64,000 nt of DNA, taken from assembly GCA_002011125.2 (NCBI GenBank), contig MTMF02000009.1, forward strand, positions 1,320,989-1,384,988, in the 5' to 3' direction. The notes beneath the pieces were generated by a model, which saw only the letters and a list, made by a program, of their open reading frames with translations, was not told the origin of the DNA and searched no databases. This document shows, in pieces, positions 16,708-27,196 of this stretch; within the stretch, counting starts at the first letter, position 1; every line of letters starts with the position of its first letter. The translations under genes and the position numbers were made by a program. The stretch is from Candidatus Hydrothermarchaeum profundi. Its GTDB lineage: Archaea > Hydrothermarchaeota > Hydrothermarchaeia > Hydrothermarchaeales > Hydrothermarchaeaceae.

Positions 16708-17097
16708 ATGAAAGTCAAAGATGTTATGAAACGTAACGTAGTGAGCGTAGATGTTGATTCCAGCCTCGCTGATGTGAAGAAAAAAATGATTGAAAATAAT
16801 GTCAACTTTGTAGTTGTTAAGGCAGGCGGGGAGATCGTCGGAGTTATTTCAGATACTGATATACTAGCGTATGCCACAAAGGGTAAGAGGCTGGAGGACC
16901 TTAAGGCTGAAAAATATATGACTGCTTGCAAACTTGAAGGTACTAATCCCTGTCTTCAAGTCTTTGAAGACGACCCCTTAGAAGAAGCTGCCACTATAAT
17001 GGCTGCTACTGGAGTGCATCATCTATTAGTGTGGGGTAAGAGCGGTTATCCTGCGGGAGTTATAACTTCTGATGATATTCTTAAGGTGGTAAAGTAA
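16708..17097 (+). CDS. Stand-alone CBS-pair protein inside the fpo-like operon
   Basis: VKDVM, GVISDTDIL, GVITSDDIL; 2-nt and 1-nt gaps to neighbours. Confidence 0.88.
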   Translation: MKVKDVMKRNVVSVDVDSSLADVKKKMIENNVNFVVVKAGGEIVGVISDTDILAYATKGKRLEDLKAEKYMTACKLEGTNPCLQVFEDDPLEEAATIMAATGVHHLLVWGKSGYPAGVITSDDILKVVK

Positions 17098-19666: not shown

Positions 19667-19920
19667 ATTTAGAATTAGGCGTGTTCTTAGTTATAAGCGC
19701 TATAACCGTAATCTCATCGACGTTAGTATTAACTTCAAAAGAGATATTTAGGAGTGCTCTATCCCTCGCCTTAATGTTGCTTGGCGTTGCCGCAATCTTC
19801 ATAATGCTGGGAGCGGAATTTTTAGCAGCTATTCAAATACTAGTTTATGCTGGCGCTATAGTTATTCTCATATTGTTTGCAATAATGCTTACGCAGAGAG
19901 AGGAAAGGGAGGTATCTTGA
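19663..19920 (+). CDS. fpoJ1: Complex I-like subunit J, N-terminal half
   Basis: AEFLAAIQILVYAGAI. Confidence 0.9.
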   Translation: MNLELGVFLVISAITVISSTLVLTSKEIFRSALSLALMLLGVAAIFIMLGAEFLAAIQILVYAGAIVILILFAIMLTQREEREVS

Positions 19921-22451: not shown

Positions 22452-23963
22452 ATGTACATTTCGTCCATTCTCCTAGTTCTTTTTATAGGCTCGGTAATCG
22501 CATTTTTAACTAGGACTAGAGAGCAGGCGAGAGTTGTAGCTGTTGTGTCTTCTTGGTTAGCTCTTTTGATATCCATTATGATGTTTATTCAGTATGATCC
22601 TAATAAAGGGCTAAGTAACTTCGAGGAACTTTACTCTTGGATCCCCTCAATAGGAATAAGCTATCATGTGGGTGTTGATGGAGTCGGTATGCCAATGGTA
22701 TTATTGAGCACTCTCATTTCTGCCTTCTGTGCTATATATTCTTGGGGAGAAAATAGAAGGCCTAATCAATTCTTTGCTCTCTTACTTCTCATGGACCTAG
22801 CTTTGGTCGGGGTATTTGTATCTCTTGACTTTTTCCTGTTCTTCATTTTCTGGGAGTTGACTCTAATACCGATGTTCTTTTTGATCGGTATTTGGGGAGG
22901 GCCTAGGAAAGACTATTCTGCTATTAAGTTCATAATTTACACACATGTTGGAAGCGTGGTAATGCTTCTAGGTATATTTGCAATGTATACTTTCCATGGC
23001 ATGGCTACTGGAAACTATACTTTTGATATTCCCACTCTTCTAAATGCCTATGGTACAATTCCTCTCTCACCATTTTGGAGAGAATTCATTTTTGCTGCGT
23101 TGCTATTAGGTTTCTTGATAAAAATGCCAGCAGTACCCTTTCACACATGGCTTCCTGATGCTCACGTTGAGGCTCCGACGGTTGGATCTATAATCTTAGC
23201 AGGGGTTTTGTTGAAAATGGGAGGCTATGGCTTATTTAGATTTTTAGTGCCTATGATTCCGTACGCTTCATCTAAGTTCATACTAGTGATCGCAATTCTC
23301 GGACTAATTAGCATACTTTATAGCCCAATAGCTGCGATAGCCCAACCAGATATCAAAAAACTTATCGCTTTTTCAAGTATTGGGCATATGGGCTTTATAT
23401 CGGTTGGTGTAGCAGCTAGTCTCGCATCAGGCCATGAAATCTCTAGGATATTCGCCTCTACAGGTGCTATGTTCCAGCTATTTGCTCATGGAATAATCAC
23501 CGCTGTTCTTTTCGGGTCGGCAGGCGCTATTGAACATCATACTGGTACGAGGATCATCATGGACTTGGGGGGCCTTGCCAAAAAAATGCCTAAATTCACA
23601 TTTTTAATGGTTGCAGGATTCTTCGCTTCTATGGGATTTCCGGGGATGGTTGGGTTTATTGCTGAGTTCTCTATACTTGCAGGATCTTATCCTCAGCTAC
23701 CATGGGTTGTGATTCTCGCGGTTATCAGTATACCTCTTACTGCGGCTTATCACTTGTGGGCTCTCCAGAGGGCTATGTTTGGACCCTATAACGAGTATCT
23801 CGGAGATGTTCATGAAATTACGTGGTATGAGCTATTAGCTTTAGGCAGTTGGGTTATTTTGATTATTCTACTTGGGGTCTATCCTATGCCTTTATTTGAT
23901 ATGATGAAGGCAACAACGGTAGACTTACTCTCAAACTTACCAGCGGGAGGTATAGTCCCATGA
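22452..23963 (+). CDS. fpoM: Complex I-like antiporter subunit M
   Basis: FWELTLIPM, PFHTWLPDAHVEAPT, LLKMGGYG. Confidence 0.96.
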   Translation: MYISSILLVLFIGSVIAFLTRTREQARVVAVVSSWLALLISIMMFIQYDPNKGLSNFEELYSWIPSIGISYHVGVDGVGMPMVLLSTLISAFCAIYSWGENRRPNQFFALLLLMDLALVGVFVSLDFFLFFIFWELTLIPMFFLIGIWGGPRKDYSAIKFIIYTHVGSVVMLLGIFAMYTFHGMATGNYTFDIPTLLNAYGTIPLSPFWREFIFAALLLGFLIKMPAVPFHTWLPDAHVEAPTVGSIILAGVLLKMGGYGLFRFLVPMIPYASSKFILVIAILGLISILYSPIAAIAQPDIKKLIAFSSIGHMGFISVGVAASLASGHEISRIFASTGAMFQLFAHGIITAVLFGSAGAIEHHTGTRIIMDLGGLAKKMPKFTFLMVAGFFASMGFPGMVGFIAEFSILAGSYPQLPWVVILAVISIPLTAAYHLWALQRAMFGPYNEYLGDVHEITWYELLALGSWVILIILLGVYPMPLFDMMKATTVDLLSNLPAGGIVP

Positions 23964-25408
23964 GCTATGTACTTTTGCTGCCTGAATTGTTGCTTGTTGT
24001 TGTTTCGTTAGGTATAGTTATATTAGGGTTATTCATGAAGAAAGAGCACAAAAAGATTTTAGGTTATCTTTCTATCTTAGCACTATTAGCTGCCTTATCA
24101 GTTGTTCTGGGGACTTTTAACATAAGTTCCACATTTTTATATAATGCTTTTGTGGTTGATAAGCTAGCACAGTTTTTCAATGTTTTATTCTTATCAGTTG
24201 GAATACTAGTATGTATCGCGTCTTTAAAGTACTATGAGAACCATCCAAATCAAGATGAATATTTCTCTCTGATACTTATGGCTACGGTTGGTATGATGAC
24301 TGTGGCAATGGCTAATGACCTTATAACTCTTTTTGTGGGATTCGAGTTGGCAAGTATCTCGACTTATATCTTAGCGGGCTTTGATAAAGACAAACGTACC
24401 TTAGAGGCGACTATGAAATATTTCATCATTGGAGCACTTTCGTCGTCACTTCTTCTATTTGGTATCTCACTCATATATGGATTGACGGGTTCTACTAATC
24501 TAACCGCTATCTCTACTACTCTTGTTTCTTCTCCTGTCGCTACAGTGGCGATGATTCTGATACTAGCGGGCTTTGGATTCAAGATGTCTCTAGTACCTTT
24601 CCATATGTGGGCTCCAGATACTTATGAAGGTGCGCCCTCTGTTGTATCAGCCTTCTTAGCCGCGGGATCTAAGAAGATGGGTTTCATAGCAGCCTTTAGG
24701 GTTTTCATAGTTGCCTTAGTTGCAATAAGACTGGAATGGTATCTTCCCTTTGCTATACTGGCGGTAATCACTATGACATTGGGAAACGTTGTTGCGATAG
24801 TTCAGGGAAACATAAAGCGTATGCTAGCATATTCAAGTGTTGCACATGCTGGTTATATAGCCATAGCTTTCGTTGTGGTTTCAAAATCACCTTTGGTAGC
24901 TCAGCAGGCTGTCGCAGGCGGAATTTTGCACGCTTTATCTCATGCTATAGCAACAGCTGGAGCTTTTCTCGTAACATCTTTCGTGGCATCCGTGATCCTT
25001 TTAAACGGAGGTAGTAGAGGCGAAGAAATTGAAAGTTATTCTGGTCTCGGAAGATCTGCTCCGATTACTGCGTTGATGATGGCCTTCTTGTTGGGTTCTC
25101 TTGCGGGGATTCCGCCCACTTTTGGATTTTACAGTAAGTTTGTTCTGTTTTTATCTGCTATTAGAGGAGACCTCCTATGGCTTGCTATTATAGCGGTTCT
25201 TAACTCTGCTTTATCAGTTTATTATTATATCCGGGTTGTAATGAAAATGTATTGGGGGGAGCCTATCGTAGGGAAAGTAGAGGAGCCTAAACATTATGTA
25301 GTCGCATTAGCGTTAGCAGCTCTGGGCGTTATAATATTAGGTGTTTATCCTTCTAAAATATATGACCTCGCTTTGTCAGCTGCTAATAACTTGCTAGGGG
25401 GTCTGTAA
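23960..25408 (+). CDS. fpoN: Complex I-like antiporter subunit N
   Basis: EATMKYF, FKMSLVPFHMWAPDTYEGAP, KRMLAYSS. Confidence 0.96.
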   Translation: MSYVLLLPELLLVVVSLGIVILGLFMKKEHKKILGYLSILALLAALSVVLGTFNISSTFLYNAFVVDKLAQFFNVLFLSVGILVCIASLKYYENHPNQDEYFSLILMATVGMMTVAMANDLITLFVGFELASISTYILAGFDKDKRTLEATMKYFIIGALSSSLLLFGISLIYGLTGSTNLTAISTTLVSSPVATVAMILILAGFGFKMSLVPFHMWAPDTYEGAPSVVSAFLAAGSKKMGFIAAFRVFIVALVAIRLEWYLPFAILAVITMTLGNVVAIVQGNIKRMLAYSSVAHAGYIAIAFVVVSKSPLVAQQAVAGGILHALSHAIATAGAFLVTSFVASVILLNGGSRGEEIESYSGLGRSAPITALMMAFLLGSLAGIPPTFGFYSKFVLFLSAIRGDLLWLAIIAVLNSALSVYYYIRVVMKMYWGEPIVGKVEEPKHYVVALALAALGVIILGVYPSKIYDLALSAANNLLGGL

Positions 25409-25409
25409 A

Positions 25410-25826
25410 ATGCTTAAGGAGGCTTTCTATAGAAGGATGATAGATGCTAACACTCTTAGAGCACAATTTGAAACTATCTATGGCGACGTAGACCTAGTAG
25501 TAAACGTTCTGCAAAACTGTGTAAAATATGGTGAGAAACTTAAATCTATAGCAAAAAGGAAGGAAGACGAAGACATGGCAAACGCTGCTATTGAAAGTAA
25601 CACTGCAATGCTATCAGCTATAAAAGGCGAAATATCAGTTGCGGAATTCAAAAAGAAAATGTGGGAGCTTGAGGAACGTTATCCTGAGTATTTCCAAAGA
25701 GGAAGGAGGGATATAGGCACCTCGAAAGATAATGTGAAAGCCATAATTCATAGGATAGAGTATATGATAGATAGATATGATGTCAGGTATCCAAGCTATG
25801 ATCGACATAGGTGCAATGATGCCTAA
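25410..25826 (+). CDS. Hypothetical soluble protein, coupled to fpoN
   Basis: 138-aa ORF starting 1 nt after the fpoN stop. Confidence 0.8.
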   Translation: MLKEAFYRRMIDANTLRAQFETIYGDVDLVVNVLQNCVKYGEKLKSIAKRKEDEDMANAAIESNTAMLSAIKGEISVAEFKKKMWELEERYPEYFQRGRRDIGTSKDNVKAIIHRIEYMIDRYDVRYPSYDRHRCNDA

Positions 25827-26097
25827 GGTGGTAGAGATGAGGGAACAGATTAAGGAATGTATTGAAGAGTTTGAAAAGGAAAAGACGGAGGTGGCAGCTG
25901 CTAGGCTTATCATATGTTTATATAATAACAAGGAAACTATTTACTGGGATGATGATCTAAAGAGGTTAAAATGCGCTGCAGAGGTTCATGATGAAAAGTG
26001 GGCTCCGTTAATGGAGGAGATAACTAAAGTCCTAGGGATAAAAAATAGGGATGAATACATTAAAATTAAAAACAAGTATAATTTAACGCAATACTAA
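25816..26097 (+). CDS. Hypothetical soluble protein, last gene of fpo-like operon
   Basis: Overlaps previous stop, SD AGGTG before ATG 25816, followed by T-run. Confidence 0.75.
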   Translation: MMPKVVEMREQIKECIEEFEKEKTEVAAARLIICLYNNKETIYWDDDLKRLKCAAEVHDEKWAPLMEEITKVLGIKNRDEYIKIKNKYNLTQY

Positions 26098-26102
26098 TTT
26101 TT

Positions 26103-26172
26103 AGTGGGAGGGGTGCCTGCGGGGGCGTTACTAAAATAAGTATTTATCCCGCAGGCAAGTGGGAGGGAGATC
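26103..26172 (-). ncRNA. Putative small RNA A: CCCUCCCA - hairpin - CCCCUCCCAC
   Basis: Stem GCCTGCGGG/CCCGCAGGC (26115-26123/26148-26156) flanked by C-rich motifs; own promoter CGAAAGA-TTTATAC at ~26208-26195; paralog of the next unit. Confidence 0.6.
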
Positions 26173-26209
26173 TTTGCTTTTTTGTATAAGTGCTGTATAA
26201 ATCTTTCGG

Positions 26210-26279
26210 AAAGTGGGGAGGGGGCCTGTAAGACATTTAAAAATAGGTCTTTGTCTTACAGGCGTATGGGGAGGGTAAT
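26210..26279 (-). ncRNA. Putative small RNA B: CCCUCCCCA - hairpin - CCCCUCCCCAC
   Basis: 12-bp stem GCCTGTAAGACA/TGTCTTACAGGC (26224-26235/26252-26263); promoter GGAAAAA-TTTATAAA with TATA at 26307-26300. Confidence 0.6.
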
Positions 26280-26356
26280 AATCCATGAAATTTATATCAT
26301 TTATAAATTTTTCCCTATTTCTGGTTTTATTTTTAATGTAGTGATACTACTCTGAG

Positions 26357-27196
26357 TTATAAATTATTGTTTGAAAGGGCATTTAGCATTGTGGTAAACG
26401 TAAAAACGCAAAATTTTGAAATGTCCTTTTCGCTTATAATTCCAACGACTCTACCTCTATCTATAATTGGAAGCCGTCTAATATTGCGTATATTAAATAA
26501 TCTACTAGCATCTCTGATGGACTTTTGAGGTTCTATGGAAGTATGGAGAGGTGTATGTATAATACCTATCATTACATCCTCTGGTGGTAAGGCCTTAGCT
26601 ACGACTTTTTTCAATACATCTCTCTCAGTTGCGATGCCGTATTTCCCCTCTGCGACTTCAACAATTACTTCTCCTACTCCTTTTTCCTTCATTAGTTTAG
26701 AAGAGTCTAATACAGAGGTTTCGGGGTTTTCAATAATTGCATCATGCATGATCTGTGACACTTTACATTCAAGGCTTCTAGCATGTTCTTTACACGTCTC
26801 TGAAAGGATTTGTATGGACTCATCATACAGGAAGATATTGTATCTAGCGACATCTTTGTTGTCTAATATACCCACGATAGTTCCCTTATCTACTACTGGC
26901 AACCTTCTAATATCGTAAAGATTAAAAAGCTGACAGGCACGTCTAACGTCTCTCTGAGCCTCTATAGTACGTAGTTCAATGCTCATGATTTCTTCCGCTT
27001 TGGTTTGAAGGAAGTCTTTATTTTTAGATACTACCTTGTATAGAATATCTCGCTCTGTGACAATACCAAAATCTTTATCTCCGCGATCTACTAGTACAGC
27101 TCCAGCATTTCCTTCGTCCATCAGTTTAGCGACTTCTAGTACGGAGGCATAAGGTTTTACAACTATTGGGGGATACATTAGTTCTCTGATTTCCAT
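26357..27196 (-). CDS. Protein with four CBS domains (two Bateman modules)
   Basis: Repeated GIVTERDIL/GIATERDVL, IRRLPV/IRRLPI, GIL/GII motifs. Confidence 0.9.
   Translation of the reverse strand: MEIRELMYPPIVVKPYASVLEVAKLMDEGNAGAVLVDRGDKDFGIVTERDILYKVVSKNKDFLQTKAEEIMSIELRTIEAQRDVRRACQLFNLYDIRRLPVVDKGTIVGILDNKDVARYNIFLYDESIQILSETCKEHARSLECKVSQIMHDAIIENPETSVLDSSKLMKEKGVGEVIVEVAEGKYGIATERDVLKKVVAKALPPEDVMIGIIHTPLHTSIEPQKSIRDASRLFNIRNIRRLPIIDRGRVVGIISEKDISKFCVFTFTTMLNALSNNNL

Follow-up and report, generated by a model that had tools for sequence, protein, structure and literature searches.

Archaeal regulatory RNAs are known from a handful of cultured models. In alphaproteobacteria, the cuckoo RNAs (RSs0680, SmelA075 and SmelA099) are multi-copy small RNAs (sRNAs) with motifs of the anti-Shine-Dalgarno (anti-SD) type and with functions that are largely inferred (PMC4615179). 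The Staphylococcus RNAs with UCCC motifs, such as RNAIII, form a further bacterial group in which, as has been shown or proposed, unpaired C-rich motifs act as seeds that pair with G-rich ribosome-binding sites (PMC4615179). In Methanosarcina mazei, the intergenic sRNA41 and sRNA154 mask ribosome-binding sites with an unpaired region, sRNA41 several of them in polycistronic messenger RNAs, and this shows that such a mechanism exists in archaea (PMC5867862). Here, two tandem units are described on the minus strand of a 64,000-nucleotide (nt) stretch of the genome of Candidatus Hydrothermarchaeum profundi (contig MTMF02000009.1; the window, below, is this whole stretch). These units are almost certainly copies of a real, transcribed small-RNA gene family, which is well supported and new to description; we class it as a further variant of C-rich regulators of the anti-SD type, with a mechanism to which we give a little less than an even chance.

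The units had been recognized from the DNA letters at 26103-26310 (minus strand) as a pair of hairpins between C-rich arms, and this architecture matches the sequence base for base. Each is about 70 nt long; the stems open with GCCUG and close with CAGGC, the A/U-rich loops contain UAUUUU(U)A and the 3' arms end in CAC. Unit 1 (26211..26277, minus strand, delimited by sequence, fold and covariance model score, with a predicted start at about 26277-26275) consists of a 5' arm CCCUCCCCA (26275-26267) followed by a UAC spacer, a hairpin (26263-26224) in which a 12-base-pair (bp) stem GCCUGUAAGACA/UGUCUUACAGGC (26263-26252 with 26235-26224) is closed by a 16-nt loop containing CCUAUUUUUAAA (between 26252 and 26235), and a 3' arm CCCCUCCCCAC (26223-26213). 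Unit 2 (26102..26171, minus strand, delimited in the same way, with a predicted start at about 26171-26170) has a 5' arm CCCUCCCA (26167-26160) followed by CUU, a hairpin (26157-26114) built on the 9-bp stem GCCUGCGGG/CCCGCAGGC (26156-26148 with 26123-26115) plus one U-A pair, a loop containing CUUAUUUUAG (between 26148 and 26123) and a 3' arm ACCCCUCCCAC (26114-26104). The hairpin energies are -18.5 kcal/mol for unit 1 and -23.5 kcal/mol for unit 2 (z -8.1 and -6.1 against dinucleotide shuffles), equally stable folds were reached by 0 of 200 shuffles, and all four C-rich arms are single-stranded in the predicted folds, including that of a 180-nt tandem transcript (z -7.5). A separate promoter, composed of a transcription factor B recognition element (BRE) and a TATA box, had been proposed for each unit. 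Both are present on the minus strand: GGAAAAA with TTTATAAA at 26314-26300, whose TATA box ends 36 nt before the hairpin of unit 1, and CGAAAGA with TTTATACA at 26208-26194, with a gap of 37 nt to the hairpin of unit 2.

The units are flanked on one side by a CBS-domain gene on their own strand (26357-27196) and on the other by an fpo/nuo-like operon, which runs on the opposite strand and ends at the spacer in which they lie. The expectation that no open reading frame (ORF) would account for them is borne out: the overlapping mechanical ORFs of 51 amino acids (minus strand) and 57 amino acids (plus strand) have no Pfam match, and the tandem arrangement that they require is not conserved. A coding reading was rejected on these grounds, an AUG in the 3' strand of the stem being confined to part of the family.

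A BLAST comparison of the intergenic region with 40 relatives gave three true homologues among short matches, each with a TATA box, a spacer of about 23 nt, a GCCU...AGGC hairpin with a differing inner stem and then CCCCUCCCCC, and each without a 5' arm. Of the 35 genomes of the order, a covariance model seeded with these homologues together with the two window units (R1) matched 29 at an expectation value (E) of at most 0.01, and of the 38 genomes of the phylum it matched 26 at E ≤ 0.001; in two other archaeal phyla it matched none of 101 and 101 genomes. A second model (R2) was built from 64 copies from other genomes and none from the H. profundi genome, the copies outside the window's own genome being those detected via model matches. 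R2 recognizes unit 1 with 62.8 bits (E 6.5e-14) and unit 2 with 41.7 bits (E 1.2e-8), and its next-best match in the 64-kb window has E 0.15. At E ≤ 0.001, it finds one to seven copies in 34 of the 38 genomes of Hydrothermarchaeota and in 20 of the 21 high-quality ones, a set that takes in one genome from a second order; eight weaker matches were inspected, and all eight have the promoter, the hairpin and the tail. In the two other archaeal phyla, R2 matched none of 141 and 141 genomes (282), a search run with stricter filters in which 41 candidates per genome were scored (41-55 over all the control searches, which were strictly filtered), and the family is therefore described only as not found in the genomes searched. 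For counting, L210 and L047, low-scoring R1 matches that look coding and have neither hairpin nor promoter, were removed first, and four opposite-strand partial matches in alignment A3 were left out, giving 65 distinct copies.

The H. profundi genome carries four copies, the two units together with C9:1798535-1798589 and C9:704567-704622, and the claim of a paralogous family stands; the model search in this genome and its relatives, which the original prediction had called for, returned homologues with covariation across the phylum. The accompanying check against Rfam left the window units without a match: at its gathering thresholds, Rfam 15 reports only four transfer RNAs (tRNAs) in the entire window, a sensitive scan covering 25800-26600 gave no match at E ≤ 10, and at the loci of the two other genome copies nothing matched at the RNA itself. 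A scan of the 2.19-Mb genome for two CCUCC-type words around a stable hairpin yielded 90 word pairs; eight of the nine best-folding ones are alternative registers of the window units and the ninth is an unrelated 84-nt interval, so in this genome the two-armed form is limited to the window units. In public genomes, the pattern ATAGGYCCCCTCCCC occurs in at least 120 stretches, with one convincing R1 match (L053, E 7.4e-11) among 80 loci; the archaeal records L079, L120 and L126 from the same scan were rejected, having neither hairpin nor promoter. At the core of the family are a covarying GCCU...AGGC hairpin of 10-11 bp with a U-rich upper part, a BRE/TATA promoter whose end lies about 23 nt upstream of the hairpin base, and a single-stranded, G-free CCCCUCCCC tail. 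The window units share this hairpin and tail, with the promoter present about 14 nt farther upstream.

Covariation was assessed in alignment A4 (the 64 foreign copies, 59 distinct rows), which was fitted to the model and so favours the structure. Paired cells make up 94.9% of it; the share falls to 25-52% when the partners are slid and is 81.9% in shuffles, none of 500 of which attains the observed figure. Two-sided changes occur at 10 of 11 pairs, in 116 cells. Folding of single sequences, which is independent of the alignment, gives the same hairpin in 65 of 65 distinct copies. The nine lower pairs contain 32 G·U or U·G cells against two non-standard ones; on the opposite strand these 32 wobbles would be A·C mismatches, which indicates that selection acted on the RNA of the C-rich strand. 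Judged from the wobble pairs and from promoter orientation, the RNA is this strand. Sequence is also conserved in the lower stem, with pair 2 being C-G in 59 of 59 distinct rows and GCCU...AGGC predominating.

The promoter holds its position and strand throughout the family. In 50 of the 65 copies, 19-27 nt separate the end of the best TATA match from the first G of the hairpin (22-25 nt in 41), with a mean match of 7.15/8 (at least 7/8 in 54 of 65), and CGAAA often precedes it; scanning the opposite strand gives no peak, a mean of 5.6/8 and only 10 of 65 copies at 7/8 or better. In archaea, the TATA box is usually centred near -26/-27, and this spacing places the predicted start at the base of the hairpin for most copies. 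In both window units and in the syntenic copy L049 of the sister genus (G001), the gap between TATA box and hairpin is 36-38 nt, so the predicted start moves about 14 nt upstream and the 5' C-rich arm would be transcribed. Sigma-70-type promoters (two plus-strand matches against 2.4 expected) were set aside as irrelevant for an archaeon. Downstream of unit 2, the first T5 run lies at 26068..26072 (minus strand), 41 nt after the hairpin and inside the 3' end of the convergent ORF 25777-26097; it is a possible archaeal oligo-T terminator of unit 2 and would then be antisense to the end of that ORF. Unit 1 is trailed by UUU only, which leaves its 3' end undefined, and its transcription may run on into unit 2. 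Two family copies elsewhere have a tRNA-Val gene behind them on the same strand, after 3 nt in G008 (L038:1015-1150, minus strand, anticodon TAC) and after 44 nt in G012 (L031:39-209, minus strand, GAC); at the G008 locus, RNase P cleavage of a co-transcript would set the 3' end of the small RNA.

The minimum-energy fold leaves the tail single-stranded in each of the 65 distinct copies. Of these tails, 59 contain CCUCC, 47 CCCUCCC and 36 CCCCUCCCC, and their first 12 nt are 72% C and 0.5% G. The 16S ribosomal RNA (rRNA) of the host ends in ...GGAUCACCUCCU, and the CCUCC core of the tail is identical to this anti-SD core. The 16S 3' end likewise consists of a hairpin and a following single strand with CCUCC, and several copies carry the exact 16S word (U)CACCUCC; the family stem, however, has 10-12 bp and an upper part of 15-25 nt, against a short GGAA-capped helix in 16S rRNA, and most tails read CCCCUCCCC rather than the 16S-like GAUCACCUCCU, so the resemblance is a lead only. 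The two-armed architecture first noticed is real in the window units and does not define the family, whose module is the hairpin with the 3' tail: a 5' arm is found in 3 of 65 distinct copies, namely the two units and the syntenic L049 of G001 (family f1), and CCUCC within 22 nt upstream in four, three of which are these two-armed copies while the fourth looks fortuitous. On the sequences compared, the 5' arm is a lineage-specific addition of family f1, and in both f1 genomes the two-armed form converges on the last antiporter-like subunit gene of the fpo/nuo-like operon. A second C-rich block on the 3' side is seen in L041, L044, L045, L218, L219, L223 and L224 (f2 and neighbours), for example ...CCCCCCAC-CUCCUCCC and ...CCCCAAC-ACCUCCCUCCCC, in some cases with a T-run after it. 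The 5' arm in f1 and the second 3' block in other lineages imply that the motif was doubled at least twice, in different ways; with two arms per unit, the tandem pair in the window presents four C-rich arms.

These features allow the family to be placed beside the described systems. The likeness to cuckoo RNAs suggested in the original prediction is sound with respect to the exposed anti-SD-like motif and does not extend to membership. As in cuckoo RNAs (PMC4615179), copies are multiple and sometimes clustered, the stems vary in a compensatory manner and a C-rich motif of the CCUCC type is the only sequence under strong conservation. Cuckoo RNAs, however, carry two to four motif modules, as CCUCCUCCC in the loops of 2-4 adjacent hairpins (PMC4615179), whereas here there are one or two modules per RNA, four in the tandem pair, located in unpaired tails outside a single hairpin with an A/U-rich loop. 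The host also differs, with archaeal 16S and 23S rRNA genes, BRE/TATA promoters and no hairpin-plus-T terminator, where cuckoo RNAs have bacterial hosts and promoters; Rfam gives no match, and the likeness does not imply homology. The Staphylococcus RNAs are likewise bacterial, bear their motifs in loops and are unrelated in sequence and architecture (PMC4615179). The earlier statement that no archaeal family like this had been named agrees with Rfam, but it has to be qualified by the archaeal precedent for masking of ribosome-binding sites, sRNA41 and sRNA154 (PMC5867862). Compared by description, the M. mazei RNAs occur only in Methanosarcina, measure at least about 120 nt, fold differently and have experimentally supported targets (PMC5867862), and the present family, from another phylum, consists of RNAs of about 55-75 nt that start with the hairpin and carry a C10 tail. 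The motif outside the helix, the single hairpin, the archaeal promoters and the lack of a model match place the family outside the cuckoo and UCCC groups and probably outside that of sRNA41.

In the proposed mechanism, an archaeal BRE/TATA promoter of its own would drive minus-strand transcription of each gene into an RNA composed of a stable hairpin, with a GC-rich lower stem and an AU/U-rich upper part, and an unpaired guanine-free tail. The hairpin would confer stability, with the U-tract perhaps acting as a protein handle, and the single-stranded C-rich arm or arms would pair with G-rich sequences of the GGAGG type, most plausibly ribosome-binding sites, competing there with the 30S subunit and thereby repressing translation. 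The sequence analysis establishes the gene family, its strand, its promoter, the structure and the accessible tail; base pairing and targets belong to the proposal. That the tail pairs with G-rich or Shine-Dalgarno (SD) sequences and so regulates translation is our tentative reading, to which we give a little less than an even chance; it relies on anatomy, that is, on the accessible CCUCC core, the doubling of the motif and the archaeal and bacterial precedents, rather than on predicted targets. SD sequences are in real use in the host, as measured by the fraction of sites that are followed by a start codon opening an ORF of at least 60 codons: 0.25 for GAGGTG, 0.21 for GGTGAT and 0.19 for GGAGGT, compared with about 0.08-0.10 for control words.

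A series of results nevertheless weighs against pairing of the tail with SD sites. By the same statistic, GGGAGG (119/1063, 0.112), GGAGGG (112/983, 0.114) and GGGAGGG (19/214, 0.089) are at background, and the specific proposal that the arms mask GGGAGG ribosome-binding sites is not supported: this word and its longer G-flanked forms precede starts at the rate of other G-rich words, and its occurrence upstream of the starts at 19917 and 23960 in the converging operon is real, yet not special. The C flanks of the tail misfit the usual sites, real ribosome-binding sites favouring AGGAGGU/GGUGAU, and none of the 10 genome sites of GGGGAGGGG lies at a ribosome-binding site, three of them being the opposite strand of the RNA genes themselves (unit 1, C9:1798577 and C9:704610). 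Two GGGGAGGGG sites outside ORFs, L215 and L216, were rejected, since they match nothing in Rfam and lack the promoter-hairpin architecture. Behind 7-nt complements lie 78 candidate starts, of which only 22 are probably genuine; these candidates share no function, and the target search of the host genome as a whole, covering words at start codons, complements of 9-10 nt and G-rich sites outside long ORFs, revealed neither enrichment nor a coherent gene set. The conserved stem sequence and the loop motif CU-N-N-UUUU hint at a protein partner, which pairing does not need. Among five sequencing runs listed, three contain the locus, all of them DNA runs and two of them perhaps its source, and no RNA run contains it, so the transcript ends are predictions. 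A T4 run follows the hairpin within 20 nt in only 17 of the 65 copies (within 60 nt in 35), which leaves the 3' end undefined, and archaeal termination may take place at the loop T-runs of 4-7 found in most copies, so that some transcripts may end before the tail; these runs may also pair with the purine-rich 5' side of the loop or bind a protein, or may terminate only partly.

Some of the same observations favour an RNA that binds a protein or serves as its decoy, mimicry of the 16S 3' end included; this is a serious rival even though we consider it rather unlikely. The hairpin with its (C)ACCUCC-like tail would here imitate the 16S 3' end, or form a poly-C/U-tract platform, and instead of pairing with messenger RNAs it would titrate or recruit a protein. 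Candidates are an Sm-like protein bound to the U-tract, a C-binding protein of the KH type and a factor that matures the 16S 3' end. Such a role fits a lower stem that is kept in sequence beyond what pairing demands, the recurrence of CU-N-N-UUUU in the loop, the tail's extended complements showing no enrichment at ribosome-binding sites, the tRNA-Val genes 3 and 44 nt downstream at two loci and neighbours that are often RNA-processing or translation genes. Among 118 flanking ORFs, there are four for tRNA-splicing endonuclease, three for archease, two for fibrillarin, one each for a SpoU methylase and eRF1 and four for aminoacyl-tRNA synthetases, along with six for response regulators and three each for UbiD and CBS proteins. 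These counts come from related genomes and hence are not independent, a gene for a partner protein is not consistently encoded beside the copies, and the independent doubling of the C-rich motif suits a pairing seed at least equally well. A bolder version, which we regard as improbable, takes the RNAs for ribosome mimics, small and abundant copies of the 16S terminal helix and anti-SD strand with a global action, which would compete with the 30S subunit for every SD site or act as decoys for 16S 3'-end factors. To our knowledge, no such class of RNA has been described in any domain of life. The proximity to rRNA- and tRNA-processing genes and to tRNA genes would also suit a guide or chaperone that uses its C-rich arm to bind a G-rich part of rRNA or of a tRNA precursor during maturation, and there is a perfect 10-nt complementarity between the 3' arm of unit 1, CCUCCCCACU, and AGUGGGGAGG in the 23S rRNA gene (C9:1915698-1915707; the gene spans C9:1913918-1916884, minus strand). 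This complementarity is probably due to chance: the consensus tail of the family has an extra C and matches only 7 nt at the 23S site, the arms of unit 2 do not match it, and the rRNA genes otherwise show only scattered 6-mers. Neither unit contains UGAUGA, C/D or H/ACA boxes are absent and the units have no match to Rfam guide-RNA models, although the scan can see guide RNAs, as its sub-threshold detection of the C/D candidate L211 indicates; a guide function is thus highly unlikely. An atypical copy of G014, L191, would match 11 nt of the AGUGGGGAGG word.

The genomic setting bears on two further explanations. All 65 copies are intergenic or nearly so, and at 28 of 63 loci the downstream neighbour is on the same strand, with a start within 70 nt in 16 cases, as would be expected if the element were the 5' part of longer transcripts and acted in cis, for instance by sequestering a downstream SD site or start codon. 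The remaining 35 of the 63 loci have a downstream gene that is encoded on the opposite strand, in 14 cases no more than 70 nt away, and this excludes a general leader role; both window units, which converge on the fpo/nuo-like operon, belong here, and there is no downstream gene in common, so we judge a cis-acting leader very unlikely. Also in its favour are the loci of G006 (L036:1097-1554) and G014 (L179:597-1056), where an archease frame opens at an AUG within the 3' strand of the hairpin. Read from this AUG, the C-rich tail would encode Thr-Leu-Pro-Pro, and either the true archease start lies farther downstream or the element doubles there as a structured leader that hides the start codon. 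An element acting at the DNA level, be it a miniature inverted-repeat transposable element (MITE) or repetitive extragenic palindrome (REP), a terminator of convergent genes, or a G-quadruplex/i-motif, is suggested by the inverted repeat between direct C-rich repeats, reminiscent of terminal repeats with a target duplication, by four plus-strand G-tracts per window unit and by copies that abut the 3' ends of convergent genes. The four G/C tracts are not conserved, as most members lack the 5' arm. A MITE- or REP-like repeat, which the original prediction had named as a possible refutation, is ruled out by the presence of just four copies in 2.19 Mb, by the restriction of both arms to the window units and by the promoter at a fixed distance on one strand. 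The terminator variant was rejected as well, there being no hairpin-plus-T site in 25900-26500 and a C-rich rather than T-rich sequence after the hairpins. The excess of wobbles over mismatches points to selection on one RNA strand, and some copies retain their neighbours, namely the last antiporter-like subunit gene in both G000 and G001, and the endonuclease gene in three f8 genomes as well as in G000. Taken together, a DNA-level or selfish element is extremely unlikely, and pairing of the tail with G-rich or SD sequences remains the reading that we prefer.

Several observations were made on the surroundings of the copies. About 120 nt downstream of the third host copy (G000:C9:1798535-1798589), between it and the tRNA-splicing endonuclease gene, lies a candidate C/D-box guide RNA (L211:2174-2229, minus strand), which is below threshold in Rfam (snoPyro_CD, 36.1 bits with a cut-off of 45, E 1.3e-4; several sR families as well). 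In the window, two overlapping Pfam-negative ORFs of 138 and 106 amino acids (25410-25826 and 25777-26097, plus strand) come immediately after the gene for the last antiporter-like subunit (23960-25408) in the fpo/nuo-like operon, and they may represent a lineage-specific final operon gene or a single gene with a frame problem. A CBS protein is encoded just upstream of the small-RNA pair, others flank copies in two genomes (L048 and L208), and a 129-amino-acid ORF with a CBS-like N-terminus (MKVKDVMKRNVVSV...) is found within the run of complex-I-like genes (16708-17097, plus strand). The 16S rRNA gene is split by the assembly, with its 5' part at the end of one contig (C8:134282-135018) and its 3' part at the end of C9, followed there by the complete 23S gene.

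Literature on small RNAs of Hydrothermarchaeota yielded unrelated papers only and none on RNAs of this kind, and no archaeal anti-SD or C-rich RNA of this kind appeared among the literature matches listed. The family is well delimited by its promoter, its covarying helix and a near-invariant accessible motif, and there are usually several copies per genome; with the covariance model, annotators can fill about 100 otherwise empty intergenic regions. If the RNAs were ribosome mimics, this phylum of slow-growing subsurface archaea would have a master switch of its own for SD-led translation or for the maturation of ribosomes, the valency of which would be tuned by doubling of the motif as 5' and 3' arms or as tandem 3' blocks. 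If, as we prefer to think, the tails act on SD sites, archaea would with this family have their first anti-SD RNA system that is both lineage-wide and multi-copy, and its likeness to the bacterial cuckoo and UCCC-motif RNAs would be a clear instance of convergent evolution.

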